From NCBI GenBank assembly GCA_030674455.1, contig JAUSGQ010000020.1:13461-77460 (forward strand): DNA of 64,000 bases. Direction: 5' to 3'. This DNA comes from a bacterium (GTDB taxonomy: Bacteria > Patescibacteriota > Minisyncoccia > Phycocordibacterales > UBA2100). The position numbers and the translations under genes were made by a program. The notes under the pieces are model-generated. The model was not told the origin of the DNA. It saw only the letters and a list, made by a program, of their open reading frames with translations, and did no database searches. Positions 34,966 through 52,845 of this stretch are shown here, piece by piece (the stretch's first letter is position 1; every line of letters begins with the position of its first letter).

Positions 34966-34977
34966 TATACTGGCAAT

Positions 34978-35715
34978 ATGAACGACGACAAAAAATTAGA
35001 CGATATTCTCAAAGAGCGGCTCGCGAGCTTGCCATTGCCAGTGCGTAATGCGATTACGTCAGCAGACGTAGAAAAAGGTCTGCGCGAACTTGCCGACAAA
35101 CACAAACTTCACTTGGACCAGTGGGAAACCTTAGAGAATGCGGTAATGTTAACGCTTATCGGCTTCAAAAAGATAGCTGATTTGAGCGAAAACATCGAGA
35201 AAGAAGTCGGCGTAGACGCAGAGACAGCGCGAGCTATTGCGTCGGATATCACGGTTATTGTTTTTGAACCAATCCGCAAAGAGTTAGAGCGCGAACTGGG
35301 AGAACCGGTGACGGAAGAAGTTGGTGAAACGACCACCGTTGCTGAAGAACCCGCGCCAGTGGAAAAACCTATCGCGGAAAAACCGGTATCCAGTGAGTCC
35401 ATACTGAATACAGAATACCGGATACCGAATACTATTCCCGCGCGGGAAATAATCGATAACCTTCCTCCGCGGCCGATTGAAGTTAAGCCCGCAAATCAGC
35501 CCGCAGCCGGTAACCCGCAGCCGGTAGTCAGAGAAGCGGCTTCCATACAGAATACAGAATACAGAATACCAAATACATCTCCTTCTACTCCGCCTCCAGC
35601 TCCGCTAATGGCAAAATCAGTGCGCGCCGTTCCGTCGCCCGCGTATGCGCTGGACACGAAAAGCCACGAGCGCACAGCTATCGACGACGATCCATATAGG
35701 GAGTCGATAGCATAG
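34978..35715 (+). CDS. Hypothetical protein with internal repeat (NTEYRIPNT x2)
   Basis: 245-aa ORF. ESILNTEYRIPNTIP and ASIQNTEYRIPNTSP are internal repeats. Confidence 0.4.
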   Translation: MNDDKKLDDILKERLASLPLPVRNAITSADVEKGLRELADKHKLHLDQWETLENAVMLTLIGFKKIADLSENIEKEVGVDAETARAIASDITVIVFEPIRKELERELGEPVTEEVGETTTVAEEPAPVEKPIAEKPVSSESILNTEYRIPNTIPAREIIDNLPPRPIEVKPANQPAAGNPQPVVREAASIQNTEYRIPNTSPSTPPPAPLMAKSVRAVPSPAYALDTKSHERTAIDDDPYRESIA

Positions 35716-36146
35716 GTGTCAGGTTCCAGGTTTTAGGTTCCAGACAAAAATGCAAAGCATCAATTCGTACAAAGACCTTATAGTGTGGCAAAAAGCTATT
35801 GATGTTGTCGCTGACACATATGCCATCACGCGAAAGTTCCCGTCTTTTGAGAACTTCGGACTTTCATCACAGATGCAACGAGCTGCTGTTTCCATCGCCG
35901 CGAATATCGCGGAGGGACGTGGCCGCGGGACACGAACCGATTACGCGCATTTTTTGGATATATCGAATGGATCAGTATCGGAACTGGAAACGTTGCTAAC
36001 AATTGCGAAGCGTTTGTCGTACTGTAGAGAAGAACAGTGTAGTAGAATGGAGGAGCAGTTAGGTGAAATCGGGAAAATGCTCGGTACTTTGCGTGCTAAG
36101 TTACGACGCTTCTCCTAACACCTGAAACCTGTCACCTACAACCTAC
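35715..36146. mobile_element. IR-flanked mini-element carrying a four-helix-bundle gene (copy 1)
   Basis: Left GGTGTCAGGTTCCAGGTTTTAGGTTCCAG and right CTAACACCTGAAACCTGTCACCTACAACCTAC are imperfect inverted repeats. The same IR words occur without cargo at 36599-36725 and 48926-49030. Confidence 0.45.
35750..36118 (+). CDS. Four-helix-bundle protein (PF05635-like, '23S rRNA intervening-sequence protein' family)
   Basis: YKDLIVWQKAIDVV...SQMQRAAVSIAANIAEG...FLDISNGSVSELETLL matches the family signature. Confidence 0.7.
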   Translation: MQSINSYKDLIVWQKAIDVVADTYAITRKFPSFENFGLSSQMQRAAVSIAANIAEGRGRGTRTDYAHFLDISNGSVSELETLLTIAKRLSYCREEQCSRMEEQLGEIGKMLGTLRAKLRRFS

Positions 36147-36151
36147 CCAAT

Positions 36152-36598
36152 ATGCAATTCCAAGTTCCGCAATTTATAGAGGTTGAAGATAAGATTTTCG
36201 GGCCTCTTACTTTTAAGCAGTTCGTGTATGTCGCGGGCGGGCTTGGCACGTGCTATCTCTTCTGGAAAATTCTGCCTGTGCTCATATCGGTTCCGCTCAT
36301 TGCGGTGACAGCTGCGCTTGCGGCCGTTCTCGCGTTTTTCCAATTCAACGGAAGACCGTTTGTCGCCGCGCTCGAGCACGGCTTCTATTTTCTTTTGCGG
36401 AGCAAACTCTACCTCTGGAGGAATGATGAGAATGGAAGGGAACAGGCGGCAACAAAAAAACAGCTTCTGGACAAACAGGCGCAGGAAAAGGGGAAATCTC
36501 TCGTATATATTCCGAGCCTTTCCAACAGCAAACTGCACGATTTAGCCTGGAGCCTAGATATAAAAGAACAAATCGCCGAGAGCGAGGCGAGTGAATAG
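36152..36598 (+). CDS. PrgI/VirB3-like small conjugal-transfer membrane protein
   Basis: IEVEDKIFGPLTFKQFVYVAGG followed by two TM helices matches the PrgI-family architecture. Immediately upstream of the VirB4 homolog. Confidence 0.5.
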   Translation: MQFQVPQFIEVEDKIFGPLTFKQFVYVAGGLGTCYLFWKILPVLISVPLIAVTAALAAVLAFFQFNGRPFVAALEHGFYFLLRSKLYLWRNDENGREQAATKKQLLDKQAQEKGKSLVYIPSLSNSKLHDLAWSLDIKEQIAESEASE

Positions 36599-36725
36599 GT
36601 GATAGGTTCCACCCAGTAGGTGATTCTGCTAAATCAGGTGCTAGGTACTAGGTTAAAATCAAAACAATGAAACTTCAAGAAATCCATCTCCCTGACACCT
36701 GTAACCTGACACCTATAACCTAATC
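36599..36725. repeat. Empty copy of the GGTG.(T)AGGT ... CCTGACACCTGTAACCT inverted-repeat element
   Basis: GGTGATAGGTTCCACCCAGTAGGTGATT...CTGACACCTGTAACCTGACACCTATAACCT, with no cargo ORF. Confidence 0.45.
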
Positions 36726-36727
36726 CT

Positions 36728-37378
36728 ATGCCCCAATCTCTAGCCAGCAAAAAATCAACGCAGGATTTCGTGCCAGTGCGCGAGGTGCGCGACGGAATTG
36801 TCGTTCTCAAAGACGGCGGCCTGCGCGCGGTACTTCTCGCGTCCTCAATCAACTTCGCTCTCAAATCGGACGACGAACAGACCGCTTTCATAACTCAATT
36901 CCAGAGCTTCCTGAATTCTCTTGATTTTTCCGTACAGATATTCATAGAGTCGCGTATGCTGGACATCCGCCCTTATGTCGCCACGCTCGAGGCTGCGCAC
37001 AAAGAGCAGTTGGACGACCTAATGCGCGTTCAGATACGGGAGTACATCGAGTTCATCAAGAGCTTTACAGAGACCGCCAGCATTATGACGAAGAATTTCT
37101 TCGTGGTAGTGCCGTATTCAACTGGAGGAATAGGTGCGGGACTTTCGGGGCATTCTTCGTTCCTGCCGTGGAAAAGAAAAAAAGGTTCCTCCGAAGAAGA
37201 AAATAAATCGTTCGCAGAACAAGTGTCCCAGCTGGAACAGAGAATCGGGATTGTTCAACAGGGGCTCGTGCGCACCGGCGTCCGCACCGTCCAGCTTGGA
37301 ACGGAAGAGACCATTGAACTTCTCTATAAATTATTTAACCCGGGAGAGGAAGGGAAGCCGATGGTACTTGAAAAGTAA
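36728..37378 (+). CDS. VirB4-like protein, N-terminal fragment (split gene)
   Basis: DFVPVREVRDGIVVLKDGGLRAVLLASSINFALKSDDEQTAFI matches the extreme N-terminus of Gram-positive-type VirB4 proteins (IPY..I.DGI...DG.Y.K...INF.L.S..E). The ORF stops exactly at the boundary of the inserted element. Confidence 0.55.
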   Translation: MPQSLASKKSTQDFVPVREVRDGIVVLKDGGLRAVLLASSINFALKSDDEQTAFITQFQSFLNSLDFSVQIFIESRMLDIRPYVATLEAAHKEQLDDLMRVQIREYIEFIKSFTETASIMTKNFFVVVPYSTGGIGAGLSGHSSFLPWKRKKGSSEEENKSFAEQVSQLEQRIGIVQQGLVRTGVRTVQLGTEETIELLYKLFNPGEEGKPMVLEK

Positions 37379-37850
37379 ATCCGAAATCCGAAGCACGAAA
37401 TCCGAAAAAATCCTAAATCCAAATATGAAAAAAGAAGACCGGAAATATGACTTGGAAGAAAGAAGTTTCTTGTTCGCAAAGAACGTGCGGGCCTTTGTGA
37501 AAAACTTGCCACGTTCCATTACCAGTATAGAAGACACGAAGCAACTTGTGCGGTCATCTGGGTCAATTGGCGCAAATTATATTGAAGCGAACGAGTCGTT
37601 GAGCAAGAAAGATTTTTTGCTACGAATACGCATCGCGCGAAAAGAGGCAAAGGAAAGCAAATATTGGCTACGACTCATAGATACCAATACTGATGGCTTA
37701 GAAAAGCGACGAGCGGAACTAGAACAGGAAGCCACAGAATTGATGATGATTTTAAGTTCGATTATGAGAAAATATGTTTAAAATTTCTTTCTTTTTTGGT
37801 TTTCGGCATTTTTTCGGATTTCGGATTTCGGATTTCGTGCTTACTATATA
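37379..37850. mobile_element. IR-flanked mini-element carrying a second four-helix-bundle gene, inserted in the VirB4 homolog
   Basis: Left AAATCCGAAATCCGAAGCACGAAATCCGAAAAAATCC and right GGCATTTTTTCGGATTTCGGATTTCGGATTTCGTGCTTAC are imperfect inverted repeats. Confidence 0.5.
37425..37781 (+). CDS. Four-helix-bundle protein (PF05635-like), copy 2
   Basis: ERSFLFAKNVRAFVKNLPRSI...RSSGSIGANYIEANESLSKKDFLLRIRIARKEAKESKYWLRL is the same family as 35750-36118. Start taken at MKKEDRKYD. Confidence 0.65.
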   Translation: MKKEDRKYDLEERSFLFAKNVRAFVKNLPRSITSIEDTKQLVRSSGSIGANYIEANESLSKKDFLLRIRIARKEAKESKYWLRLIDTNTDGLEKRRAELEQEATELMMILSSIMRKYV

Positions 37851-37854
37851 GTCT

Positions 37855-39762
37855 ATGTCCCTCCTCGACCTCTTCAGAAGCAAAAAGACAAACGCCGAAC
37901 CGTCGGCGCTTCCCATACTCCCCGAGGAAATTTATTCGGCCGGCGTTTTGGATTTGCAGGATGTCATCGCTCCGCACGCGCTAAAGATAAGCTCGCGCGA
38001 ACTGGACTTGGGCGAGCGCATCGCGCGCACATTTTTTGTTATTTCCTATCCGCGCTTTCTCACCACCGGCTGGTTCGCGCCCATCATCAACATGGACAAA
38101 GTCCTGGACATTTCCATATTCATTCACCCGATGGACACGAGCGAAATGCTCCGAAAATTCCAAAAGAAAGTCGCCGAAGTGCAGAGCCAGATATCCACGC
38201 GCGAGCAAAAGGGAATGGTGCGCGACCCGATGCTCGATACCGCGTATTCCGACCTCGAGGGTCTGCGCGACTCTCTCCAGCAGGCGCAGGAACGCATCTT
38301 TGAGGTCGGCCTGTATCTCACCGTATACGGCAACACCCGTGAGGCGGTAGATAAAATAGAATCCGAGATACGCTCTGTTCTTGAATCGCGCTTAGTCTAC
38401 ATTCGCCCCGCGCTTTTTCAGCAAGAGCAAGGATTCAGGAGCGTCCTTCCGCTCGGCAATGACGAGCTCGATGTTCATACGAAATTGAATTCCGCTCCGC
38501 TCTCCTCTATCTTCCCATTTATCTCATTCGACCTCACTTCAAACCGCGGAATTCTCTACGGCATCAACCGGCATAATTCTTCGCTTATTCTCTTCGACCG
38601 ATTCTCGATGGAGAACTATAACTCGGTCATGTTCGCGAAATCGGGTTCTGGAAAGAGCTACATGACGAAATTGGAAATCCTGCGCTCGCTCATGTTCGAC
38701 ACGGAAGTCATCGTCATAGACCCTGAACGCGAGTATGAATATCTGGCGTCTACCGTGGGCGGCCGGTATTTCAATATTTCACTTTCATCGGAACACCACA
38801 TCAATCCGTTCGATCTTGCTATCCCGCGCGAAGACGAAAATCCTGCGGATATTTTGCGAAGCAACATCATTACTCTCGTCGGACTTTTCCGCATTATGCT
38901 TGGAGGCCTCTCTCCCGAGGAAGACGCTATTATCGACAGGGCGATAACTGAAACGTACGCGCTTAAAGACATTACGGCGGAAGCAAACTTCGCGGCAATT
39001 GAGCCGCCGCTACTCTCCGACTTTGAGCTGGTGCTCTCCGGCATGGAGGGAAGCGAATCGCTCGTACAGCGACTTTCGAAATATACTAAAGGTACGTGGT
39101 CGGGATTTATGAACAGGCCGACGAACGTGGACATGAATAAAAAACTCATCGTATTTTCCGTCCGCGATATGGAAGACGACCTGAAGCCCATCGCGATGTA
39201 CATCATTACGCACCACATATGGAATGTCGTGCGCAAAGAACTTCGCAAGCGCCTACTCGTCATAGACGAGGCGTGGTGGATGATGCGCTCCGCGGACACC
39301 GCCTCATTCCTGTTCTCAATCGCAAAAAGAGGAAGAAAATATTTCCTCGGTATTTCCACGATAACGCAGGACGTTTCGGACTTCTTGAACTCTCCGTACG
39401 GCCTGCCCATGATAACGAACTCGTCCATACAGATTCTTTTGCGGCAATCCCCGACTTCGGTGGACCTCGTCCAGCAGACTTTCAAGCTTTCGGATGAAGA
39501 AAAATATCTTCTGCTCGAGTCGGACGTGGGAGAGGGAATATTTTTCGCCGGACTAAAGCACGTGGCCATCAAAGTCATCGCTTCGTACACGGAAGACCAG
39601 ATAATCACATCCGACCCGTCGCAAATTCTTGCAATCCGCAAGGCAAAACAGGAATTGGCAGATGCAGAGAGCGCCCAGGCTACGTCTGCGATTACAACTG
39701 ACGCCGCTTCCTTCGCCCCGGCTCAGAATACCGCCGCCAGTTCTACAGCCACGCTCAAATGA
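37855..39762 (+). CDS. VirB4-like T4SS ATPase (C-terminal 635 aa including the ATPase domain)
   Basis: IAPHALKISSRELDLGERIARTFFVISYPRFLTTGWFAPIINMDKVLDISIFIHPMD is a VirB4-typical segment. Walker A MFAKSGSGKSYMTK, Walker B RLLVIDEAWWMM. Together with 36728-37378 it would make ~851 aa, a normal VirB4 length. Confidence 0.8.
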   Translation: MSLLDLFRSKKTNAEPSALPILPEEIYSAGVLDLQDVIAPHALKISSRELDLGERIARTFFVISYPRFLTTGWFAPIINMDKVLDISIFIHPMDTSEMLRKFQKKVAEVQSQISTREQKGMVRDPMLDTAYSDLEGLRDSLQQAQERIFEVGLYLTVYGNTREAVDKIESEIRSVLESRLVYIRPALFQQEQGFRSVLPLGNDELDVHTKLNSAPLSSIFPFISFDLTSNRGILYGINRHNSSLILFDRFSMENYNSVMFAKSGSGKSYMTKLEILRSLMFDTEVIVIDPEREYEYLASTVGGRYFNISLSSEHHINPFDLAIPREDENPADILRSNIITLVGLFRIMLGGLSPEEDAIIDRAITETYALKDITAEANFAAIEPPLLSDFELVLSGMEGSESLVQRLSKYTKGTWSGFMNRPTNVDMNKKLIVFSVRDMEDDLKPIAMYIITHHIWNVVRKELRKRLLVIDEAWWMMRSADTASFLFSIAKRGRKYFLGISTITQDVSDFLNSPYGLPMITNSSIQILLRQSPTSVDLVQQTFKLSDEEKYLLLESDVGEGIFFAGLKHVAIKVIASYTEDQIITSDPSQILAIRKAKQELADAESAQATSAITTDAASFAPAQNTAASSTATLK

Positions 39763-40064
39763 ACACAACCCGCATAAGCGTAACGACTGCAATTTTTTTG
39801 GTCGCTATAGCTGTATTAACTGACATAGCTGATTTTCTCTTGGGGATGGGGGCTTTGGGTATTCTTGTAGACATTCCTGCCGCTCTCATATTAGGAATAT
39901 GTTTTTCACACTGCGACGTAAGTTTGATGGATTCCAAACGCGTCGGTAAATTTCTAGCCACCATTGTTGCAGAGGCGACCCCCGTTGTTAACGACTTTCC
40001 TATATGGACTTACACGATCCTTTCCACAATAAAACAAGAGTGGCAAGAACCTCTCGAGATATAA
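39759..40064 (+). CDS. Small two-TM membrane protein (possible pilin/VirB2-like or VirB3-like)
   Basis: 101 aa with two hydrophobic helices. 4-nt overlap with the VirB4 homolog stop. Confidence 0.35.
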   Translation: MNTTRISVTTAIFLVAIAVLTDIADFLLGMGALGILVDIPAALILGICFSHCDVSLMDSKRVGKFLATIVAEATPVVNDFPIWTYTILSTIKQEWQEPLEI

Positions 40065-40071
40065 TTGCCAT

Positions 40072-41106
40072 ATGCAGACAAGAATTTACGTCATTTGTCT
40101 TACGGTCTTCCTTTTTTCTCCAACAACAATTCACGCGCAATTTAATTCCCCAAGCGAATTGGGAAAGATATTTATTTCTCTAACACCGGGGAATCCGGCC
40201 CCCGGCGAAAATGTTCAGCTTTCCGCGACAAGCCCGCTTATCGACCTCGCACGAAGTGACATCATCTGGTATGCGGATAAAAAAGTAATCGCGGAGGGGC
40301 GGGGTCAAATACATGCGGGCGTTACCGCGGGTCCTGCCGGGTCGGAGACTGATATCGTAGTCATCGCACAGTCCGAGAACGCAAGCGCAACCGGAGAAGC
40401 ATTTTTGAGACCGGCCGAAGTTGGACTAATGTGGGAATCCGATTCCTATACACAGCCCTTTTATAGAGGGCGCGCGCTTCCTTCCGCAGGAACAAAGCTC
40501 CGAGTGCAGGCACTCGCGCGGTTGGTCCTTCCAGATGGCAGTTCTGTACCGGAAAATGAAATTACCTACACCTGGAAGCGAAACGGTTCCGTTGTTGGGT
40601 CTGTATCGGGAATCGGCAAGTCTTTTGCGATTTTTCCGTCTCCATCGCTTTTCGGCACTGACATAATTGAGGTGGAGGCGGCTTCTGCGGACGGCACGCG
40701 CGTGGGACACGCAAGCGCGAGAATACCGTCCGTTGAACCCGTGCTTGCTTTGTATGAAGACCACCCTCTCTTTGGAATAATGTACGGAAAAGCACTCGAC
40801 AAACAGATTTCCGCAAAAGACCAGGAAATGACTTTCGCCGCAGTTCCATACTTTGCACAAGCAAGAAGCCCGGATGACGAACAATTCATATACAAGTGGC
40901 GGGTTAATGGGAGAGATATTACTGCTGATTATGCGCGGCCGAGCGAAATTACAATAAACTCAACGGATTCAAGCGGGGAAGCGCTTCTCGCTCTTACTAT
41001 AACTCGCGAACGCAACTGGAACATGAAAGCGAGCGGTGCATGGAATATTTTGTTCCCATCGGGGTCAGGCACGCCCGCAACTGACCCGTTCACATCCGCC
41101 CAATAG
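40072..41106 (+). CDS. Hypothetical secreted protein
   Basis: Signal peptide MQTRIYVICLTVFLFSPTTIHA. 344 aa. Confidence 0.45.
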   Translation: MQTRIYVICLTVFLFSPTTIHAQFNSPSELGKIFISLTPGNPAPGENVQLSATSPLIDLARSDIIWYADKKVIAEGRGQIHAGVTAGPAGSETDIVVIAQSENASATGEAFLRPAEVGLMWESDSYTQPFYRGRALPSAGTKLRVQALARLVLPDGSSVPENEITYTWKRNGSVVGSVSGIGKSFAIFPSPSLFGTDIIEVEAASADGTRVGHASARIPSVEPVLALYEDHPLFGIMYGKALDKQISAKDQEMTFAAVPYFAQARSPDDEQFIYKWRVNGRDITADYARPSEITINSTDSSGEALLALTITRERNWNMKASGAWNILFPSGSGTPATDPFTSAQ

Positions 41107-41118
41107 TCTTTTAATTGT

Positions 41119-41404
41119 ATGCCCAGACACTCACTTTGGCATCGCCTCTTTATGAAAACAATCCTTGTGAGCAAACTTCGAACAATGGGACAAGTTCAGG
41201 TTACATCTAGGTATGCTTCGGCAATAAAGGTTCCTCGCGGCAAGCCGCGAGGAATTAGTGGAACTCGCTTCGCTCGTTCAGTCGCGCAGCAAGCTGCGCG
41301 GTATTCCACCTGTGTTGCGTCTTCGCTCGGACGAAGTGTGAGCAAGCTCCCACTTCGCTCCTCGCTAGCCACAATAAATTATGCCAAAGTTAGTGTACGG
41401 GTAT
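41119..41404. repeat. Long (286-bp) relative of TIR element family 'A' with structured interior
   Basis: Left ATGCCCAGACACTCACTTTGGCAT, and the right end ATGCCAAAGTTAGTGTACGGGTAT is its inverted repeat (20 of 24). The interior holds several GC hairpins (CCTCGCGGCAAGCCGCGAGG; CGCGCAGCAAGCTGCGCG; CGTCTTCGCTCGGACGAAG). The terminal GGGTATG supplies the ATG of the downstream gene. Confidence 0.6.
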
Positions 41405-42713
41405 GATATCCACAAAAACATTTCTTCATTACGCCATAACTATCACGATCATTCTCCTCGTTGGAGGACTCGCCGGATGGTATTACTTTCTCAACAAGCA
41501 AAAGCAGGCAATTTCCACGAGCGACACGGGGCGGGGGTTAGACTCGCCTGCGCCCGCTTTCGGCGGCAGTACGGGGAGCAATTACAGCAACGTCTCCGGA
41601 ACAATCTCCGATGGCACGCCCGTCAATCAGGCCAAAGCACCGCCCCGGATTTGGCAGGTTACAAAAACGCCGGTCGCAGGCATGGGATTTGTTACAAGCA
41701 CTTCTTCAGCCGCAACAACATCAGCTGCGCAATTGTATTTCGTTGAGCGCGCAACCGGATACATCCTAAAAGCCGATACGGAAACCAGCCTGATATCTCG
41801 ACTTACAAACAAACTTTTTGCCCGCACATATGAAGCGTCGTTCAGTTCGGACGGTTCCGTAGTTCTCCGCTCAATCGACGACCGGGGCAATATCACGAGC
41901 TTTGCCGGTGATAATCCTCTGCAAAGTGCAGCGACAGCCTCCACTTCTCCAACGAACTCTAAAGAGCTCGCTGGGGGCCCACTTTCCGGCAAATATTTGG
42001 AGCCCAATATTCGTATGATCGTGCCGATGCAGAAAACACGTGAATTGCTTCTTCTCATACCGAATGCGGGCGGGGGATCAAGCGTGGTTCTATCGTCATG
42101 GAACGGTATTAAACAAAAAACTCTTTTTTCATCGCCTCTTGCTGGATGGAAACTCTTCTCCCTCTCGGATGGGCGGATATTTCTTTCTCTCTTGCCTTCT
42201 GATGATGCGGCAGGCTACGCGTTTGAGTTAAAAAACGGCACCCTGGTACCGCGTTTAAGGAACATCCCCGGGCTGACGTTCCTGCCGCGAACATCGTCGG
42301 ATGCCGTATTATTTGGCGAATCGAGCGGAAGGCTTTCGCTCTTCTCAAGCGCCAAAGAAGGGGCCGAGAGGGTGTATCTTCCGCTTCAAACTGTAGCTGA
42401 TAAGTGCGTATGGGCTCCCTTAAACGCGCCGCTTCGCAGAGCGTCGGGCGAGCGACTCATCGCGTATTGCGCTGTTCCGCAATATGTCGCGTCAAGCAAT
42501 TTTCTTATGGATTGGTACAGGGGAGCTCTGCGCACCTCTGACTCATGGTGGCGCATTGATACTGCTACCGGAGAAGTAACGCCTCTGCTTGAGACCGAGG
42601 AAACTGACAAGGTTTTTGATGTGGAAAATCCGATCATTGACAGCTCGGGAGAGCAAATAGCTTTTATGGACGCGAAAGACAAGTCTCTGTGGCTTCTTCG
42701 CATAACACAATGA
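41403..42713 (+). CDS. Hypothetical membrane-anchored exported protein
   Basis: N-terminal TM ITITIILLVGGLAGWYYFL. 436 aa and Ser/Thr-rich. Confidence 0.45.
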   Translation: MISTKTFLHYAITITIILLVGGLAGWYYFLNKQKQAISTSDTGRGLDSPAPAFGGSTGSNYSNVSGTISDGTPVNQAKAPPRIWQVTKTPVAGMGFVTSTSSAATTSAAQLYFVERATGYILKADTETSLISRLTNKLFARTYEASFSSDGSVVLRSIDDRGNITSFAGDNPLQSAATASTSPTNSKELAGGPLSGKYLEPNIRMIVPMQKTRELLLLIPNAGGGSSVVLSSWNGIKQKTLFSSPLAGWKLFSLSDGRIFLSLLPSDDAAGYAFELKNGTLVPRLRNIPGLTFLPRTSSDAVLFGESSGRLSLFSSAKEGAERVYLPLQTVADKCVWAPLNAPLRRASGERLIAYCAVPQYVASSNFLMDWYRGALRTSDSWWRIDTATGEVTPLLETEETDKVFDVENPIIDSSGEQIAFMDAKDKSLWLLRITQ

Positions 42714-43603
42714 CTATGAATACAAAGAATATCTTGAAACACCTTAAAACGCGCATTTCCAACGTCTTGTACGCTGTCGCGTTCGCACCGCTTGCAGATG
42801 TGGCAAGTTCCCAAAAACTTAGAGCTCTTTATAGTAGCGACGCCGATTTGGTCACTTACCTGAACACGCTATTCAAAGTGGCTATTTCGGTGGGAGCCAT
42901 TATCGCGGTATTGCGCCTCATGTATGCGGGCTACCTCTACATGGCAAGCGACATGTGGACAAGTAAAGAATCTGCGAGAAGTATATTTCGCGACGTCTTT
43001 GTTGGCCTGCTGCTTCTTCTTTCTGTATACATTATTCTCAAGCAGATCAATCCTAACCTCCTGAATTTGGACGCCAAGCTTAGCGAGGTGACAGTGGTTC
43101 TACCGAGCGACACCAGAAGAGATTGGGCGACTGACCCCGCGCTGAGCGCAGCAATGGCTACTGCATTTGGCGACAGTGGCAGAACATGGGAAAGATTACG
43201 AACTGCTGGCATAAGCAGAAACAAAAGCGAATGTACTGCGGCAGCCCCAACCAATTGCACGAGTCTGGGAGGGCTTGGCGAGGGTGCTGTTAACGGCCTT
43301 ATCAACCTAAAATCTGCGTGTACTGAAGCCGCCCGAGCTAGTTGCACAGGTTCCGCATGCAGTTGCGATGTTACTGTAACAGGTGGTACCGAATCATGGC
43401 TTCACAGCCGAGGCACTCAACATCGCCCCGGGAATTCTGTTGTTGATCTGGCTCCTTCAGCAGGTCTAAATACATTCCTTCTCGGATCCGGCGTAGCTCC
43501 TGTAAGCGGCCAGCAGGTTACCAAAAACTTTGCGCGTTACACATACGAAACCACCGGGGACAACGGCGTGTCGACTGGTAATCACTGGCACGTCCAGTAT
43601 TAA
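42689..43603 (+). CDS. Membrane protein with two N-terminal TM helices and a C-terminal Cys-rich domain bearing an M15/VanY-like metallopeptidase motif (possible T4SS pilin-like / cell-wall hydrolase)
   Basis: TM helices VAISVGAIIAVLRLMYAGYLYMA and VFVGLLLLLSVYIIL. C-terminal SRGTQHRPGNSVVDL (H-x7-D) and the terminal GNHWHVQY resemble the Zn ligands of VanY/M15 peptidases. Confidence 0.35.
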   Translation: MASSHNTMTMNTKNILKHLKTRISNVLYAVAFAPLADVASSQKLRALYSSDADLVTYLNTLFKVAISVGAIIAVLRLMYAGYLYMASDMWTSKESARSIFRDVFVGLLLLLSVYIILKQINPNLLNLDAKLSEVTVVLPSDTRRDWATDPALSAAMATAFGDSGRTWERLRTAGISRNKSECTAAAPTNCTSLGGLGEGAVNGLINLKSACTEAARASCTGSACSCDVTVTGGTESWLHSRGTQHRPGNSVVDLAPSAGLNTFLLGSGVAPVSGQQVTKNFARYTYETTGDNGVSTGNHWHVQY

Positions 43604-43612
43604 TTTGCCGCG

Positions 43613-43753
43613 TACCCAGTTAGTACAATTTGGCATAGGTTCTGCCGCGGTCTTCATGCAGGAAAGGGAAGGGAAAAATCGCGTGACTCAAAATCGCCAT
43701 CGTTCGGTAAGAACGGGTGAACCAAAGGCAATGCCAAATTGTCCTACTGGGCG
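43613..43753. repeat. TIR element family 'A' copy 4
   Basis: TACCCAGTTAGTACAATTTGGCAT (43613-43636) and ATGCCAAATTGTCCTACTGGGCGTA (43731-43755). It lies between convergent genes, and its right TIR overlaps the last codons of jag. Confidence 0.75.
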
Positions 43754-44238
43754 TATTTAATTACAACTCTGCGGTTTCTTCCTTCTCCTGCTGATTCTGT
43801 TTTTACGTTCGGCGAATCGGCGAGCACGGTGTGTACTATGAGGCGTTCATACGCATTCATCGGCGTGAGTTCAACATCATACTGAAAAGAGCGCGCCCGT
43901 TCCGCCATCATGAGTGCTTTTGTTTCCAATTCTTTTATCTGTTTTGCCCGGTAGTCGTTAACATCCACCAAAAATTGGAGGTATTCAACGGCTTCTTCGA
44001 CTCCCTCCGCATTTCTGGCGGTCTCGCCTGTCGGAAAAGACTGTTTTTCAGCGATTTTCTTCACGAGATGGTCTATGGCATGCACCGTATCGCCGTGCAT
44101 CCCGATGAACTGGCGTGCATCCTGCATTTGTATCGCAAAAATCGTCTGTCCCGCGATTTGATTTTTTACAACGCCGGAATGAGAGACGCCGAGAGCCTCG
44201 AGCAACTCATTGAGAATCTTTTCAACCTTTTTTTCCAT
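43744..44238 (-). CDS. jag: Jag/KhpB-like RNA-binding protein (KH + R3H domains)
   Basis: The C-terminal R3H-like MNAYERLIVHTVLAD motif and position downstream of yidC match the yidC-jag operon. Start set at MEKKVEKILN. Confidence 0.65.
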   Translation of the reverse strand: MEKKVEKILNELLEALGVSHSGVVKNQIAGQTIFAIQMQDARQFIGMHGDTVHAIDHLVKKIAEKQSFPTGETARNAEGVEEAVEYLQFLVDVNDYRAKQIKELETKALMMAERARSFQYDVELTPMNAYERLIVHTVLADSPNVKTESAGEGRNRRVVIKYAQ

Positions 44239-44266
44239 GGGGCAACTATACCTCTCGAAAGAGAAA

Positions 44267-44404
44267 ATCCCAAATCTCAAAGTCCAAATCACAAACAAAC
44301 CTCAATATTCAAACATCTAATATTGAAAACGAATTCTGTTTTGTTTTTTTGAGCTTTAATTGACTGGAGCTTGTTTGGAGCTTGGAATTTGGGATTTGGA
44401 GCTT
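44267..44404. repeat. Intergenic inverted-repeat block, 'TTGGAGCTTG' family, locus 3
   Basis: CCCAAATCTCAAAGTCCAAATCACAAACAAACC ... CTGGAGCTTGTTTGGAGCTTGGAATTTGGGATTTGGAGCTT extends into the yidC 3' end. Confidence 0.5.
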
Positions 44405-45125
44405 ATGTCGTCATTGAACCTTCTGCCCATCAGCAATTCTTGTGCGATCATCGCGGTGTTGCTCGTCACCCAGTAAAGCGCAGCGGCGGAAGGGACTGCA
44501 TAGGCAAATCCGCCTATCATTATCGGCAGTGCGTATCGCATCATCATATCGGCGCTTCTTGCCATGTCCTTAGAGAATGTGCCGTCGGGAGCAACTTTTT
44601 TAGCAGCGCCCATGGAAAGGCGCGTATAGATAATCTGCGTTACTCCCGCGAGAATGGCAAGAACAAAACTTTTGCCGGCCATATTTATAAGCCCGATGAA
44701 TTCCATATTCACTCCGGAAGGGACAGAAATAAAAGCGTACAAGCGTTCGAGATTGATTTCTGGAAGACCGCCCCAGGCAAATATCCAATACAAAGCCAAT
44801 AAAATCGGAAGCTGGATAAATATCAGCCCGAAACTCGCGAATGGATGCACATCATTCTCTTTATAGAGAGCAAACATGGCTTTACCTTGCTGTTCTCTGT
44901 CATTTTTGTATTTTTCTTTCAGCTTTTCCAGCTCCGGCGCAATTTTTTTCATTTTTTGCTGCGTCTCGATGGCGCGCTTGGAGAGAGGGAAGAGGATGAT
45001 GCGCACAATTATCGTCAAGATAATAACGGCAATGCCTACGTCATGAGTAGGAAGAATATCTACGATATAAATAAGCCCGTTATAGAGCGGGTTATATACG
45101 GCGGCATGGAATGCGGATGAAATCA
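44356..45125 (-). CDS. yidC: Membrane protein insertase YidC (short form)
   Basis: Five-TM core with conserved PILLALYWIF and the hydrophilic groove Arg. Start set at MISSAFHAAVYNP (45125), because the longer ORF N-terminus merely translates the TIR element. Confidence 0.85.
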
Positions 45126-45136
45126 TCGGACTAGTA

Positions 45137-45275
45137 TACCCGGTCAGTACAATTTGGCATAGTTTCTGCTGTGGCTCCGTTTGCGCCACACCAGTCTGTC
45201 ACCATCGCGTGATTTATTCGAGTTTATCAAGAATAGCTGTAACCGAGGCAATGCCAAATTGTCCTACCGGGTGTA
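45137..45275. repeat. TIR element family 'A' copy 5 (between rnpA and yidC)
   Basis: TACCCGGTCAGTACAATTTGGCAT (45137-45160) and ATGCCAAATTGTCCTACCGGGTGTA (45251-45275). Confidence 0.8.
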
Positions 45276-45283
45276 CCCATCAA

Positions 45284-45640
45284 CTACAAAGCGCGAGGTT
45301 TTGCGATTGTGCGCGCCACAAGTTGCTCGACATCGTTCTTAATTTCCGCATAGGAGGCGGTATTCGCCAGCCGCATCGCGTAAAATACGAGAATCGCAGG
45401 CGCGGACACGGCGGATAGGCATTGCTTCATCGCCGCGCGCCATCTTCGTTTGATACGATTTCTTGCAACAGCGAGCGCGGCAGTTTTTTTAGAAACTACG
45501 CAACCAGCCTTGATTTCCGCCGTCTTTTGGCCGGCAAATGACCCAAATGACAAAATAAAAAGCGCTCCGCGCTCTCTTTTGAATTTGGCTTTTTCCGCGC
45601 GAACAAAATCCGCGTGCGTCAGTGAATTTTTTCGAGGCAT
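45284..45640 (-). CDS. rnpA: Ribonuclease P protein component
   Basis: LTHADFVRAEKAKFKRERGALFILSF...AVARNRIKRRWRAAM matches the RnpA signature (RNR.KR). Start at MPRKNS with AAGGAAC 5 nt upstream. Confidence 0.85.
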   Translation of the reverse strand: MPRKNSLTHADFVRAEKAKFKRERGALFILSFGSFAGQKTAEIKAGCVVSKKTAALAVARNRIKRRWRAAMKQCLSAVSAPAILVFYAMRLANTASYAEIKNDVEQLVARTIAKPRAL

Positions 45641-45704
45641 AAAGGTTCCTTGAACCCGTATTGGCTCCTCGGCTCGCCGCCCATTCGCCAATCAAACTGA
45701 AAAC

Positions 45705-45839
45705 CTATGTGGACAGTCGGGCGCGTCCCTTTCGGCGGCGGCGTTTCAAAAGCGCGCGCCCGCTCGTCGTGGCGGAACGTTTACGGAACCCGTGAGTCTT
45801 CGAACGCTTTCTCTTTTTCGGCTGATATGTGCGTTTCAT
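45705..45839 (-). CDS. rpmH: 50S ribosomal protein L34
   Basis: The minus-strand translation [44 protein letters not shown] is a canonical L34. Not in the ORF track (44 aa). Confidence 0.9.
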
Positions 45840-46090
45840 AAATGCGTATAGCGTATGGAGTATAGCGTATGGAGGGCGTGAAGGGAAGTAGCAGTGCCAA
45901 TCTACAAATTTATCCCAATCTACAAATGTCTACGAATGACATATACGTCCATTTGTAGTTATTTGTAGTATTCGAATCATTCGTAGATTGGAACATTTCA
46001 TTGTCCCCACGCTATCCACACCTTGTGAACACCCGCGACAAAAAGCGCGGGACTATACCTTCGCGGCGGGACGCGTATAATGACCGGTCT
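45840..46090. other. Putative chromosomal replication origin (oriC)
   Basis: Lies between rpmH and dnaA. Tandem TATAGCGTATGGAG x2 (45848-45875), six 9-mers TCTACAAAT/TCTACGAAT in inverted arrangement (45901-45987) and a DnaA-box-like TATCCACA (46013-46020). Confidence 0.55.
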
Positions 46091-46229
46091 ATGCCCGGTA
46101 GGACAATTTCGAATCGTCTCATATGAATATATTCCTACCGAATCAAAAAAATGCTGGACGAGTAGAGGGGCAATGCCCTTGTGCGATTATTTGCGACCGT
46201 AATAATTCGAAATTGTACTAACCGGGTAT
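46091..46229. repeat. TIR element family 'A' copy 6 (TTCGAA variant) abutting dnaA
   Basis: ATGCCCGGTAGGACAATTTCGAA (46091-46113) and TTCGAAATTGTACTAACCGGGTAT (46206-46229). Internal CATATGAATAT is shared with copy 3. Ends in the annotated dnaA ATG. Confidence 0.8.
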
Positions 46230-47613
46230 GCCTCCTACTTCAATGATGTCCGCTCCCTCGATGACGAATCGGGAACTTTGGCAAAACGCCCTCGTGCAAA
46301 TCGAGCTTGGGACATCCGAGGCAAGTTTTCGCACCTGGTTTCGCAACACAGACATCTCCAGCCGCGACGGAAGCACCGTGCATGTATCCGTTCCGAGCAA
46401 AATCGTTAAGGAATGGCTCGTAGAGAAGCACCACAAGCTCATTTTGAAGGCGCTCCGCACGCTCGATAGCACGATCCGGACCGTCGAATACACCGTCCAC
46501 CGCTCCGCGACACCGCCGGCAGTTGAAAGAAAGCCCGGACGAGCCCCGTCTCCGGAAAACGCGTCGTTCGACCTCCAGTCTCTCTACATCGACAAGCGCG
46601 ACAACCTGAATCCGCGCTACACATTCGAGACATTTGTCGTCGGCCCGTTCAACCAGCTCGCTCACGCGGCAGCAAAAGCCATCCTCGAGCGTCCGGGACA
46701 GATTTACAATCCGCTTTTTATATATGGCTCGACCGGACACGGCAAGACTCACCTCATACAAGCTATCGGCAACTACTTCAAGAAGGCGCATGCCAACAAA
46801 AAAGTGCTGTATGTTACATCTGAGCGCTTCGCGGTCGATTACATCAACGCGGTTCGCGCCGGCCGCGCGAACGGATTCAAAGACCAGTACCGGCAGTATG
46901 ACGTTTTGATAATGGATGACGTCCAATTCATCGCGAATACCGAAAAAACACAGGAGGAACTCTTCCATTTGTTCAACGCGCTCCACGACAACAACAAGCA
47001 GATAGTTTTCTCGTCCGACAAGCACCCGAATTTCCTCCCCGGCTTCGAAGAACGGCTGCGCGGCCGCTTCTCCGCCGGGATGATCGCGGAAATTCCTGAA
47101 CCCGATATTGAGTCTAGAACGGCTATAATCAAGGCTAAAATCGAGCAACATGGATTCAATATTCCCGACGACATAATCCAGTACATCGCCGAGAGCGTAC
47201 GCGGCAACATACGGGAACTTGAGGGCGTCCTTAATATGATCGTCTGCAAATCCCAGCTCAAGGGCAAGGCGGTTTCTCATGCGGACGTGCGGGCGCTGGT
47301 GAAGCACAATATAAAACCGAACAAGGGAGTCTCAATTGAGGAAGTCGTGCGCAGAATTTCCTTGTATTACGAAATCCCGGAAAAAAGTATTTACGAAAAA
47401 ACCCGCAAGAAAGAAGTTGTTAAGCCGCGGCAGATAATCATGTATATGCTTCGTGAAGAATTCAATGTTTCGTATCCGTCGATAGGGGAAAAGCTTGGCG
47501 GACGCGACCATACCACGGTTATTCACTCATGCGAAAAAATAAAACATGAAATAAAGACCAACACGTCGCTAGAGCAAGAGGTCGAGCACATACGCTCTCT
47601 CATTCACTCGTAG
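46228..47613 (+). CDS. dnaA: Chromosomal replication initiator protein DnaA
   Basis: AAA+ Walker A GSTGHGKTHL, Walker B LIMDDVQF, sensor/box VII, and the C-terminal HTH DnaA-box-binding domain (GGRDHTTVIHSCEKI). True start may be an internal Met (MMSAPS / MTNRELW). Confidence 0.95.
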   Translation: MPPTSMMSAPSMTNRELWQNALVQIELGTSEASFRTWFRNTDISSRDGSTVHVSVPSKIVKEWLVEKHHKLILKALRTLDSTIRTVEYTVHRSATPPAVERKPGRAPSPENASFDLQSLYIDKRDNLNPRYTFETFVVGPFNQLAHAAAKAILERPGQIYNPLFIYGSTGHGKTHLIQAIGNYFKKAHANKKVLYVTSERFAVDYINAVRAGRANGFKDQYRQYDVLIMDDVQFIANTEKTQEELFHLFNALHDNNKQIVFSSDKHPNFLPGFEERLRGRFSAGMIAEIPEPDIESRTAIIKAKIEQHGFNIPDDIIQYIAESVRGNIRELEGVLNMIVCKSQLKGKAVSHADVRALVKHNIKPNKGVSIEEVVRRISLYYEIPEKSIYEKTRKKEVVKPRQIIMYMLREEFNVSYPSIGEKLGGRDHTTVIHSCEKIKHEIKTNTSLEQEVEHIRSLIHS

Positions 47614-47827
47614 TGTGTTGATATGGTGTGGAAATCAATCTCACAACATCCGTATAGCCATCGAGAAAAATATAAAATTTAAAATAAAATCTAACAACTC
47701 TAAGCTATCAACATATCTTCAACACTCGAAGAACCTAAAATACCACCCATCTTCATCGTAAAATCATCTTATACACACAATACACAGACATAGTAGTAAT
47801 AGTATTTTATATATATAAAAAGTATTT

Positions 47828-48925
47828 ATGCATCTAACAACTACCAAGGAACAAATTCTTTCAGCATCGGTAATAGCAGAACGGATAGTCGGGAAAAAAG
47901 AATCTCTTCCGATATTATCCTGTATTTTTTTAGATGCCGGTAGCGGTTTATCAGTCCAATCAACCAATTTAGAAGCTGGTGTTGATATAGCGGTTGCCGC
48001 AGAGATTAAGGAGAAGGGGGTAATTGCGATTCCGGCCACAATATTTTCACAAACGATCAAATCCATTAACAGCGACAGAGTTGTGCTGAAAACAGAATCG
48101 GAAAACTTAGTTGTCGAATCACGCGGCGCGAGAACCTTGATAAAGGCGATCCCCCATGAGGAATTTCCAAAACTATCATGGGATAACGGTAAAAAAGGTA
48201 TTGCAGTTCAGCGATTAACGCTCATAAAAGGTATTCAATCAGTCTTGTATTCCGCTTCCCACTCAATGATACGGCCAGAACTTGGAAGTGTTTACATATC
48301 AATAAAAGGAGGGCAGATTACGTTTGCGGCCACGGATTCATTCCGTCTCGCGGAAAGGTCTATAAAAGGACATTCGTCGTCCGAGGAGGGTGAATTTCTC
48401 ATTCCATCGAAGCATGCCGCGGAACTTGTGTATGTTTTGGAACGCGGCGCCAGTGAAAACGTAAAAATACAAGCATCCGACGCACAGCTTGTTGTTGTAG
48501 CGGACGGAACGCGATTCGCCGCGCGCGTTGTCGAGGGAGTATTTCCCAACTACACCGAGATTATTCCAAAGCAATTCACTACAGAGGCGACACTGCTCAA
48601 GAATGACTTTGCGGAGATGTTGCGGAAGGCGCGCGTGTTTTCCGGAAACGACCAGCATGTGGGGCTTCACGTGTATCCAAAAAAGAAAATTTTTTCCGCT
48701 ACTGCGCAGAGCCCAGATGTAGGAGAAACATCAGATTCTATTGATGCGGCCGTATCCGGAGAGGACATAGATATAAATTTCCACATCGGCTATCTTGCGG
48801 ACTGTATTCCGTCGATTGATTCCGACAGCATCACGCTTGGTTTCTCCGGCCCGAGCAAACCACTTGTCATTCGAGGAGCATCCGACATCGGCTTCACGTA
48901 TCTTGTGATGCCACTGAATAGGTGA
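47828..48925 (+). CDS. dnaN: DNA polymerase III beta subunit (sliding clamp)
   Basis: 365 aa with a three-domain clamp pattern, directly downstream of dnaA. Confidence 0.85.
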   Translation: MHLTTTKEQILSASVIAERIVGKKESLPILSCIFLDAGSGLSVQSTNLEAGVDIAVAAEIKEKGVIAIPATIFSQTIKSINSDRVVLKTESENLVVESRGARTLIKAIPHEEFPKLSWDNGKKGIAVQRLTLIKGIQSVLYSASHSMIRPELGSVYISIKGGQITFAATDSFRLAERSIKGHSSSEEGEFLIPSKHAAELVYVLERGASENVKIQASDAQLVVVADGTRFAARVVEGVFPNYTEIIPKQFTTEATLLKNDFAEMLRKARVFSGNDQHVGLHVYPKKKIFSATAQSPDVGETSDSIDAAVSGEDIDINFHIGYLADCIPSIDSDSITLGFSGPSKPLVIRGASDIGFTYLVMPLNR

Positions 48926-49030
48926 AAGGTGTCAGACAAATAGGTGTCAGGTTCCAGCTGTCAGGTGTCAGGAGTATCCGAACCACAAGTATTTTCCTGT
49001 AACCTGTAACCTAAAACCTGTAACCTGATT
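48926..49030. repeat. Empty copy of the GGTGTCAGGT ... AACCTGTAACCT inverted-repeat element between convergent dnaN and PBP1A
   Basis: GGTGAAAGGTGTCAGACAAATAGGTGTCAGGTTCCAGCTGTCAGGTGTCAGG ... CCTGTAACCTGTAACCTAAAACCTGTAACCTG. Confidence 0.5.
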
Positions 49031-51468
49031 TCATTGAATCGTAAACGAAACTGTTTGTTCCGCGTTACCGAGAGAGCTTTCTGCAACGGCGCGCAATACT
49101 GCGGGTCCGTGCGTCGTCGGCATAAAAGAAACGGAATACGGAGGCGTTGTGGCGCTTCCTATAAACTGGCCATTCAGGTAGTAAGCGACACGCGATACGC
49201 TTTCGGGACGAGGGTGCATTGAGGAAATAGGAAATGAGGCGAACCCCGAGACACTAATGCCATTTTGCGGGCTCAAAATTACGAATTGACCCGGGGCTCC
49301 CGCGGCTGGAGTTGGCGCGGGCGCAGATGATACCTCCTCTGCAAATGGGGCAGGATTGGCGCTTGCCCACACCTGCACTGGATATTCCCAGCGTGCGAAT
49401 TGCGGGTCGGCGTATGGGTTTGAGGGCGGGCCGGAGCGCGGGTCGCCTTTGTTTATCCAATAGAGGATGTCGTGTATGCCCTGCGCGGGATTGCTGTTCC
49501 AGCTTCCCCGCAAAACCGGCGGCAAAGAATCAAGGTCTGTGTCGGGAGAAGGAGGTGGAAACTCCACAGACTGATATTTAGTGAGAGCGTATGCAAAAAC
49601 TTCATGCCACATGGGCGCAACGATAAATGCCGCTATCTTTTTTACCATCGGACTATTGTCATTGTTGCCGGCCCACGCGCCCATCGCAATTCCGGGCGTG
49701 TAGCCGATTATCCATGCGTCATGGAAATCATTCGTGGTGCCTGTTTTATCTGCTACCTGGAACCCTGGGAAGTAGAGGGGAGAGTTGGCGCCGAATTCCG
49801 GAGTCCGCGCGACGTTGTCGGAGAGGATATCGTTCATCTGGCGCGCGATTTGGCTGTCGATGACGCGCACGCTCTGTTCCGCATAACTCTCGAGGATGTT
49901 TCCCGCGCTGTCCTTTACTGTAAGTATCGGCGTCGGCGGATTGCGCACGCCGTCATTGGCGAATACGCCGTATGCGCCTGTCATCTCAAGAAGGCTTACC
50001 TCGCCGCCTCCCAATACGAGCGTTAATCCGTACTGGTCTTTGTCTCCCAGCGTTGTAATTCCCATGTCGCTTGCTGTTTTTAGGGAATCTGTTATTCCCG
50101 CGAGATAGAGAGTTTTAATTGACGGTACGTTTATTGATTGCGCAAGAGCATTGCGCAGCGTTATCGGCCCGCGGAACTTTTCGTCGTAGTTACCCGGCGA
50201 GTAGCAGGGAGCCTGGTTGTTCGTATAATCAGCCGGCTGGCAGAAGGTCGAGAACTGTGTCTGCAGGTCAAACACCACGGTGTCCGGCGTGTAGCCCTTT
50301 TTAAATGCGGTCGCGTATACAAACGGCTTGAAGGATGATCCCGGTTGGCGATTGGCGAGAGTGACATTCACCATACCGTCGATATTTGGGTCAAAATACC
50401 CGCGCGAGCCAACCATGGCGAGGATTTGTCCGGACTTCGGCTCTACCGCGACGAGACCCGCGTTCGAGGCATTGAAATTCTTTTCATTTTGAAGAGCGGT
50501 TTTGGAAACAACCTCTTCAGCTTTCTTTTGCAGGTCATAATCGAGCGTTGTTATGACCTGAAGACCGCCGCTTGCAACGGCATCAGCCCCGTACTTTTCT
50601 TCCAAGTATTCACGCACATAAAATACGAAATGGGGAGCCTTGATGCCTGCCTCTGCTTCATCCCTGAACGCTACCGTTTCATTTCTGGCACTCTCATATT
50701 CCGCGTCATCAATAAATCCGTTCTCTTTCATTTTTAGAAGCACGAGATTTTTCCGGCCTTCCAATTCGTCGCGGTGTCTGCCGTACGGAGAATAGCGCGT
50801 CGGAGCCTGGGGGAGCGCCGCCAGGTATGCGGCCTGCGCGAGGTCCACATCTTTCGCGTCGATGCCGAAGAAATATTGGCTCGCTTCCTCTACCCCATAA
50901 ATAGTCCCGCCGTACGAAGTTTCATTCAGATAGATATAGAGAATCTCATCTTTAGAATAAATGCGCTCAAGCCGTATTGCGAGAATGATTTCTTTCAGCT
51001 TGCGAATGATGGTTTTGTCCCGCGTAAGAAGCGCATTTTTTACGACTTGTTGCGTGATGGTGGAGCCGCCCTGCACGAAACCGCCGGAAAAGATATTTAC
51101 GAGCATGGCGCGCGCAAACGAAAGCGGGCGGAAACCGAAATGCTGGTAAAATGTGGCATCTTCGATGGCAATAGAGGCGTTCCTGATATTTACCGAGATG
51201 GCATCAAAGGGAACCGTGGTGCGGCGCATCGCGCCATGCACGTCGTAGAGGAGTATGTTTCCTGTACGGTCGTATATTTTTGTGGATTCATCCACTCTGC
51301 GGTTCTGAAAATTCTCCAGCGAGGGAATTGAGACAACGGCGCCCCACGCGGCCACGATGCCGACGATGAGCATGCTTAGGATAAAAATTGCCGCAAGCGA
51401 CATTTTGATTGCCTGAAAGAGATTGGCGCGTGAAAAATCTTTGCCGTAGCGGTTATATTTTGAGGACA
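49031..51468 (-). CDS. Penicillin-binding protein 1A (bifunctional glycosyltransferase/transpeptidase)
   Basis: GT51 motifs (EDATFYQHFGF, GGSTITQQVVKN, RKLKE) and transpeptidase SSFKPF, SIN and KTGTT, with an extra C-terminal domain. Start set at MSSKYNRYG (51468), because the upstream ORF extension translates the TIR element. Confidence 0.9.
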
Positions 51469-51482
51469 TGTTGGGTGGATTG

Positions 51483-51622
51483 TACCCGGTTAGCATACTT
51501 TGGCATAGTTTCTGCCGTCCTTCACCGCGCCTTCGTCTAAAAATCTTCTCCCGGTGCAATTCGAACGATTATATGTATAAAATCACAACCGAGGCGATGC
51601 CAAAGTGTTCTACCGGGTGTAC
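51483..51622. repeat. TIR element family 'A' copy 7
   Basis: TACCCGGTTAGCATACTTTGGCAT (51483-51506) and ATGCCAAAGTGTTCTACCGGGTGTA (51598-51622). Internal AGTTTCTGCCG and ACAACCGAGGCGATGCC are conserved. Confidence 0.8.
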
Positions 51623-52830: not shown

Positions 52831-52845
52831 TTGGATTTTGCAAAT

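Follow-up and report, generated by a model that had tools for sequence, protein, structure and literature searches.

The 23S rRNA intervening sequence (IVS) of Coxiella, described as selfish, is 428 nt long and located in helix 45; it has a terminal stem of 28 bp and an S23p open reading frame (ORF) whose start codon is preceded by two to three GACAGAT heptamers in tandem, variable in number (PMC4990558). RNase III cleavage in its stem has been demonstrated, its ORF is decaying, and earlier work proposed that the IVS ORF aids mobility (PMC4990558). ORFs of the 23S_rRNA_IVP type also occur in 16S/23S rRNA insertions of Candidate Phyla Radiation (CPR) bacteria (PMC11270868). Here we describe elements of similar layout at junctions between protein-coding genes, found in a 64,000-nt stretch of DNA from a Patescibacteriota bacterium (contig JAUSGQ010000020.1, positions 13,461 to 77,460; hereafter the window), where two genes for four-helix-bundle (4HB) proteins of family PF05635 lie between inverted arrays of 7-nt words in an operon resembling a type IV secretion system (T4SS).

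Like the 23S IVSs of Coxiella and Leptospira, the window elements hold a PF05635/S23p ORF in sense orientation, surrounded by a terminal inverted-repeat stem and with tandem heptamers just before the start; a size of ∼430–480 nt and reductive ORF decay are further features in common. They differ in lying at operon junctions of protein genes rather than in an rRNA helix (25 or 45), and in that gene-less copies and insertion polymorphism are documented for them; RNase III excision, demonstrated for the Coxiella IVS, would apply to our elements by analogy. An Rfam search at gathering thresholds gave 0 matches across the whole window, hence no rRNA, and rRNA, which would mark a true IVS copy, was sought and not found in any of the retrieved loci. 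We think it likely that the elements are IVS-type foldback insertions outside rRNA, a variant of the IVS kind.

The arms of the elements resemble a second class of described sequences. Heptameric repeats are known as STRR (short tandemly repeated repetitive) sequences in cyanobacteria, as GGGAATC in Xanthomonas, as GGGGA(T/C)T in Nostoc, and as TAACTGA in Beggiatoaceae, cyanobacteria, and Bacteroidetes, and have been called abundant and of unexplained function, with no link made to a protein or a mobile element (PMC4692102, PMC4679880). Xanthomonas has ∼186 such arrays, including 70–75 convergent inverted pairs, and 83% of them are position-conserved between species (PMC4692102); a role in regulating translation has been suggested for heptamer repeats that lie immediately upstream of a start codon (PMC4679880). 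Both these repeats and the arms described here are tandem 7-nt intergenic words, often in convergent inverted pairs, that end beside start codons, can contain three-frame stops, and vary in copy number. The published repeats are orphan sequences, whereas the arrays described here form the arms of a unit that carries a gene. We found no paper linking PF05635 to heptamer repeats in a literature search that covered few subscription journals, so a prior description is possible.

Heptamer Arrays Enclose the 4HB Genes and Also Occur Without Them

All genes of the T4SS-like operon (32.4–43.6 kb) are co-directional, in the order 838-aa gene, 245-aa gene, HB1, PrgI-like gene, TraC-like 216-aa gene, HB2, VirB4, and further genes, one of which is T4SS-pilin-like. 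HB1 and HB2 are the only PF05635/TIGR02436 genes in the window; their proteins are 17% identical to each other, match PF05635 with E values of 1.7e-38 and 1.1e-15, respectively, and both also match TIGR02436, in agreement with an earlier note on this DNA, made from the sequence alone, that had called them PF05635-like. The features concerned are as follows.

35712–35745, + strand: left arm of the HB1 element, ATAGGTGTCAGGTTCCAGGTTTTAGGTTCCAG, four to five 7-nt words of the type [T/C]AGGTnn
35750–36118, + strand: HB1, 122-aa 4HB protein, PF05635/TIGR02436
36119–36146, + strand: right arm of the HB1 element, CACCTGAAACCTGTCACCTACAACCTAC, reverse-complement word family
36596–36727, + strand: empty (gene-less) AGGT-family element between the PrgI-like and TraC-like genes
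37377–37411, + strand: left arm of the HB2 element, AAATCCG AAATCCG AAGCACG AAATCCG AAAAAAT
37425–37781, + strand: HB2, 118-aa 4HB protein of a divergent subfamily
37808–37842, + strand: right arm of the HB2 element, TTTTTTCGGATTTCGGATTTCGGATTTCGTGCTT
47828–48925, + strand: dnaN, convergent with PBP1A
48919–49028, + strand: empty (gene-less) AGGT-family element between dnaN and PBP1A
49031–51559, − strand: PBP1A

Each arm consists of 7-nt words in tandem, [T/C]AGGTnn for HB1 and AAATCCG for HB2. As the earlier note had claimed, HB1 is flanked by inverted repeats (35713–35738 and 36120–36145, 26 nt, 77% complementary) and HB2 rides a different pair (37374–37411 and 37808–37845, 38 nt, 84% complementary, with perfect cores of 16–17 nt). 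In every element of the window, the upstream gene has its stop codon within the first word, and the last word ends 4–12 nt before the next start. The stop TAG of the 245-aa gene (35713–35715) thus falls in the first word of the HB1 left arm, the HB1 right arm terminates 5 nt ahead of the PrgI-like start codon (36152), and the HB2 element ends at 37842 with the VirB4 start 12 nt later, at 37855.

Both cargo-less copies of the AGGT family reported in the earlier note are present, and the genes around the second, dnaN and PBP1A, are convergent as stated there. The first begins at the PrgI stop codon TAG, and its loop holds an 18-codon mini-ORF (ATG at 36667 to TAA at 36721–36723) that stops 4 nt ahead of the next start codon (36728); the second takes in the dnaN stop TGA (48923–48925) within its first words. 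The AGGT words are confined to these sites: AGGTNNNAGGTNNNAGG, a three-word period-7 pattern (≤1 mismatch), has 17 matches in the 64 kb, compared with 0.44 expected, and all 17 lie in the six arms of three elements, on the + strand in left arms and on the − strand in right arms. AAATCCG doublets occur in the window at the HB2 element only. Generic low-complexity terminators, named in the earlier note as what the words might turn out to be, do not fit these findings, nor the absence of a T-run after the stems and of any terminator-like site overlapping an arm in 34900–38000; the arms of the operon elements run directly into start codons, inside the operon.

The predicted folds of the full elements HB1 and HB2 are both closed by a terminal stem (z −5.2 for HB2), and the two empty hairpins consist of 5-bp helices broken every 7 nt (z about −2.2 each). 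A promoter scan of the regions upstream of HB1 and HB2 found no promoter-like site of their own, and a search for defence systems was negative.

Other word families occur elsewhere in the window. A third hairpin family, made of AATTTGCAA words, is found at 52714–52845 between a convergent purH-like gene and ruvC, with no 4HB gene nearby; none of the other hairpins is as stable (−40.6 kcal/mol, z −5.5), and a lone arm of the same words lies at 22653–22688. The ACGCTAT family (complement GCGTATA; 28585–28625 and 45844–45875) and the GGAGCTTG family (12112–12160 and 44360–44405) form single arrays far apart, which may be orphan arms with partners or 4HB genes beyond the window.

Junctions of the VirB4 Locus Are Polymorphic for the Elements

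We compared the operon with the VirB4 loci of 80 metagenome-assembled genomes of Parcubacteria/Paceibacteria (Kaiserbacteria-like), the group to which the window also belongs, whose VirB4 is 73–91% identical to that of the window, and refer to the junctions 245-aa gene|PrgI, PrgI|TraC-like, and TraC-like|VirB4 as slots 1, 2, and 3. Short, hairpin-only, and hairpin-plus-gene junctions all occur, which is the presence/absence polymorphism that the earlier note had suggested looking for. Usually, slots 2 and 3 measure 1–20 nt and slot 1 ∼20–70 nt; in some genomes the junctions are expanded, either to inverted-heptamer hairpins of 50–140 nt or to 400–500 nt of arrays plus a 4HB gene. Because the orthologous junctions are 1–20 nt in most relatives, the hairpins are insertions. 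For example, locus L169, with a 4HB protein that shares 75% identity with HB1, has only 1 nt in each of slots 2 and 3.

The closest relative, L165 (HB1 89% identical), carries in slots 2 and 3 a shared, perfectly identical empty element of 95 nt, present in two independent assemblies, so that its slot 3 holds an empty element where that of the window holds the unrelated HB2 element. The empty element of window slot 2 is also found in L165 and L174. Elements are copied or homogenised within genomes, and gene-less hairpins coexist with full elements built of the same words. Decay intermediates exist as well: L015 retains a C-terminal 4HB fragment alone between intact arms, and the loops of empty hairpins often keep an ATGCAA start like that of HB1, both consistent with empty elements arising through internal deletion.

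The 4HB tree is independent of slot, with identities across slots of 63% (L026 slot 1 and L067 slot 3), 58% (L055 slot 1 and L074 slot 3), and 53% (window slot 3 and L007 slot 2). Within 10 kb of VirB4, 15 of the 17 4HB genes lie in the three operon junctions, corresponding to 15 of 208 slots occupied versus 2 of ∼995 other junctions (odds ratio 39, p = 2e-10). The T4SS-like operon is an insertion hot spot.

The 216-aa gene upstream of HB2 (36728–37378), which the earlier note had taken for the N-terminal part of VirB4, proved to be a separate TraC-like gene (PF26593), present with or without a 4HB gene in nearly all related loci that reach that far. The VirB4 of the window is complete (635 aa), and splitting of VirB4 by insertion of HB2 is thereby ruled out.

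In L174, a GIY-YIG gene is nested in a decayed 4HB element at the first junction (1783–2342); the arms and a C-terminal 4HB fragment persist, making this one selfish gene inside another.

The HB2 Element Occurs With Its Arms in Unrelated Operons

A homologue 91% identical to HB2 occupies the same junction in L174, and two others (88% and 81%) lie between gatC and gatA on other Kaiserbacteria-type contigs. The gatC|gatA copies have the same 49-nt left arm and leader and the same right arm as the HB2 element; the homologous stretch runs from AAATCCG (37377) to TTTCGTGCTT (37842), with unrelated sequence on either side. These sharp ends define the HB2 element as 466 bp (37377–37842). In the gatC|gatA copies, the gatC frame runs through the left array until a TAA in the leader of the element closes it. 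On a Deltaproteobacteria-like contig, a livH|livM-like junction (two ABC-permease genes) holds a 70% identical protein between words of the same AAATCCG/CGGATTT family, which indicates that protein and words have spread horizontally as a pair. The element is thus a discrete unit, found arms included at operon junctions that have no relation to one another.

HB2-type proteins are 65–72% identical among CPR bacteria, Deltaproteobacteria, Desulfobacterales, and Caldithrix, and HB1-type proteins drop fast to ∼50% identity. The conservation of the HB2 type suggests either recent cross-phylum transfer or unusually strong constraint.

The Layout Recurs Across the 4HB Family

A metagenome scan with an HB1-subgroup profile (the broader family alignment had no conserved stretch) yielded 80 unrelated loci. 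Comparing the 77 4HB genes that had enough flank with 321 control genes from the same loci gave the following frequencies, in line with the systematic bracketing by inverted repeats that the earlier note had proposed to check.

Flanks complementary at ≥16 of 20 positions: 4HB genes 58%, controls 1.6%
Period-7 array in a flank: 4HB genes 70%, controls 12%

When periods of 5–10 were tested, enrichment appeared at 7 (49%), with a few at 8 (9%), and at no other period. The family-wide word consensus is [T 55% / C 26%]AG[G/T], with the G-rich array upstream in 50/56. Of 68 4HB genes, 58 have an upstream neighbour in the same orientation; where both neighbours are close (n = 42), 28 genes lie between two co-directional genes and none between divergent genes. 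The elements sit in sense orientation at gene 3′ ends, between a stop and the next start, and the upstream frame often ends in the first words.

Words and proteins are linked in that, on one contig with five elements, proteins sharing arm words are each other's closest relatives; the covariation holds within that contig and across phyla (HB2 and the livH|livM-like copy). Orphan arrays of the same words occur near 4HB genes in L088, L096, L141, and L143. The same layout is found in plasmids of Calothrix brevissima and Nostoc punctiforme, where a 4HB gene is accompanied by AGGGTGT/ACACCCT arrays, and, with 8-mers, in Gemmatirosa. In Xanthomonas campestris and X. sacchari, an XCC0516-type gene lies between accB and accC within GGGAATC-family arrays, and X. 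sacchari has an orphan inverted pair of these words after accC. That 4HB genes of many bacteria share this layout points to a possible source of the unexplained heptamer repeats in Xanthomonas and cyanobacteria.

Among solved structures, the 4HB family profile matches 2GSC (Xanthomonas XCC0516, E = 3e-33) and 2RLD; both contain five chains that share one sequence, and 2GSC is described as a toroidal homopentamer (PMC4990558).

Within 12 kb, L143 (4020–15447) has five 4HB elements; each lies in sense orientation between metabolic genes, and four word families are used among them.

Comparison With Other Repeat-Based Systems

The elements share with systems of repetitive extragenic palindromes (REPs), in which REP doublets (REPINs) are associated with a tyrosine transposase (RAYT), their genome-specific families of short repeats, inverted doublets between genes, and many orphans per gene; in both cases the associated gene is itself flanked by inverted repeats that are also found as orphan doublets. 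RAYT is an IS200/IS605-type Y1 transposase, whereas the gene here encodes a PF05635 four-helix bundle with no known nuclease fold, and REPs are single imperfect palindromes, whereas the repeats here are tandem heptamer arrays.

Terminal inverted repeats, small gene-less copies formed by internal deletion, and multiple copies per genome are features in common with MITEs (miniature inverted-repeat transposable elements) and foldback elements, and the arms of eukaryotic foldback elements are, as here, built of tandem sub-repeats. Unlike MITEs, our elements show no target-site duplication, have no transposase-encoding parent that we could find, and lie in strict sense orientation at gene 3′ ends. 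The earlier note had regarded the 4HB genes as mobile cargo of MITE-like elements. Mobility of the gene as a unit with its arms stands; the 4HB gene, however, is the signature gene of the element class and not incidental cargo, and with neither a transposase nor a target-site duplication found, "MITE-like" describes behaviour, not membership.

The 4HB protein and Avd, the accessory variability determinant of diversity-generating retroelements, have a homologous four-helix-bundle fold, and the 4HB scores are below the Avd cut-offs (32 versus 40 for PF22296; 45 versus 80 for NF033474). The 16 window proteins scanned include no Pfam match to a reverse transcriptase; template and variable repeats were not searched for.

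Evidence Against Mobility, and Alternative Explanations

Several observations count against an interpretation as mobile, IVS-type elements. No direct repeat (target-site duplication) is seen at the HB2 element boundaries in four contexts, nor when filled and empty slots 2 and 3 are compared, although 1–2 nt would be possible in either case, and the filled/empty comparisons revealed no conserved target sequence. No transposase was found, and the sole gene of the full elements, the 4HB gene, matches no transposase family. The identical neighbouring empty elements of L165 could be explained by gene conversion between pre-existing copies. The HB1 element (z −0.7) and the two empty hairpins (z −2.2) are barely stabler than shuffled sequences, and arm mismatches of the G:U type (98) are not in excess over those of the A:C type (110) and thus give no specific sign of an RNA helix formed by the sense strand. 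Across the family, ∼30–40% of 4HB genes lack recognisable arms. Three-frame stops, which we rejected as a universal arm design, are frequent in left arrays (41%, versus 5% of shuffles) but do not occur in all. Finally, the S23p protein is seemingly not made in Coxiella (PMC4990558).

Among the alternatives, the one that survives best, although we consider it unlikely, is a domesticated and beneficial REPIN-RAYT-like system, in which the arrays serve the cell (in RNA processing or genome structure) and the 4HB protein is a single-copy maintenance factor. Such a system would account for the many orphan arrays per few 4HB genes (∼186 arrays in Xanthomonas; PMC4692102), for the flanking of the 4HB gene by the same words as the orphans, and for the conserved position of 83% of Xanthomonas arrays between species. 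It fits poorly with ORF decay, which is common here and also seen in Coxiella (PMC4990558), with the patchy occurrence of 4HB genes among close relatives, and with cross-phylum spread at 70% identity.

We regard it as very unlikely that the elements are ancient and vertically inherited in the operon with many losses, the 4HB proteins being accessory T4SS-like parts that do not move. The concentration of 15 of the 17 VirB4-proximal 4HB genes in three junctions, and slot 1 copies that look orthologous in the clade of the window, are what this explanation predicts, but the closest 4HB relatives lie in other slots or other operons, sister genomes hold different element families in the same slot, the distribution is sporadic, and the same gene family is present in accBC, gatCA, and liv operons as well as in rRNA elsewhere (PMC11270868). 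A host regulatory role of the hairpins (as terminators, attenuators, or mRNA-stability elements), with 4HB genes there by chance, is highly improbable and largely refuted: their position at gene ends and between convergent genes, and the translational role proposed for heptamers before start codons (PMC4679880), are outweighed by the 1–20-nt orthologous junctions that mark the hairpins as inserted, the lack of T-runs after the stems, the restriction of AGGT words to three sites in 64 kb, the travel of arms with the gene into unrelated operons, and the rarity of such flanks at control genes.

Proposed Mechanism and Implications

For a mobile element of the IVS kind, we envisage a full element of ∼0.45 kb with a promoter-less 4HB gene between inverted 7-nt arrays, purine-rich upstream and their reverse complement downstream. 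By analogy with the 23S IVSs of Coxiella and Leptospira, the element would be transcribed by read-through, its arms would pair into a long imperfect helix, and RNase III would cut that helix; we propose that the host transcript survives insertion as a result of this cleavage. In the weakest step of the model, the pentameric, Avd-homologous protein might act on cognate heptamer arrays and promote their copying or maintenance, as RAYT does on REPs. A role of the IVS ORF in mobility was reportedly proposed in 1993.

More tentatively, and as a possibility that we ourselves rate as rather doubtful, PF05635 proteins could be the missing partner of bacterial heptameric repeats (STRR, GGGAATC, TAACTGA, and others), each subfamily recognising its own 7-nt word, perhaps one word per pentamer subunit, and driving the copying or homogenisation of arrays. 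If this is true, 23S IVSs, orphan heptamer arrays, and operon-junction elements would be one repeat-plus-protein system, mechanistically unlike known transposons. Three loose ends are brought together in one testable question: the role of the IVS ORF, the reason why repeats with 7-nt tandem units exceed all other long simple repeats in over-representation in many bacterial genomes, and the role of the very common 4HB genes. The data supply defined element ends together with filled and empty sites from nature, and a tractable model is offered by the accB-4HB-accC junction of Xanthomonas, for whose protein there is a crystal structure. For genome annotation, the elements matter in that they lengthen or shorten the 3′ ends of neighbouring genes and can imitate split genes.

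Other Features of the Window and Related Loci

In the close relative L167 (7768–11571), VirB4 is 1,267 aa long and carries an intein with a LAGLIDADG domain. Four loci without an insertion at the 245-aa gene|PrgI junction (L003, L010, L017, and L018; ∼8770–8825) have an TGATATAAT-like box 6–8 nt before the PrgI start, compatible with a leaderless transcript; neither the window nor the other genomes with a 4HB element there have it.

Long repeat-rich spacers lie on either side of dnaA (46228–47613) and dnaN, and the stretch 45692–47827 probably represents the region of the chromosomal origin. An unrelated repeat family, CCCGGTAGGACAATTT(C/G)G.. (8 found, compared with 0.01 expected), is located at positions 450, 3720, 12231, 12344, 43616, 43733, 45253, 46094, 46205, and 51599, with several inverted pairs ∼110 nt apart and two copies next to dnaA.

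The 245-aa gene itself contains two heptamer-like arrays of CAGAATA words (35396–35435 and 35539–35580), both encoding NTEYRIPNT. The two copies differ synonymously, and the 7-nt-periodic sequence has therefore been retained as coding sequence.

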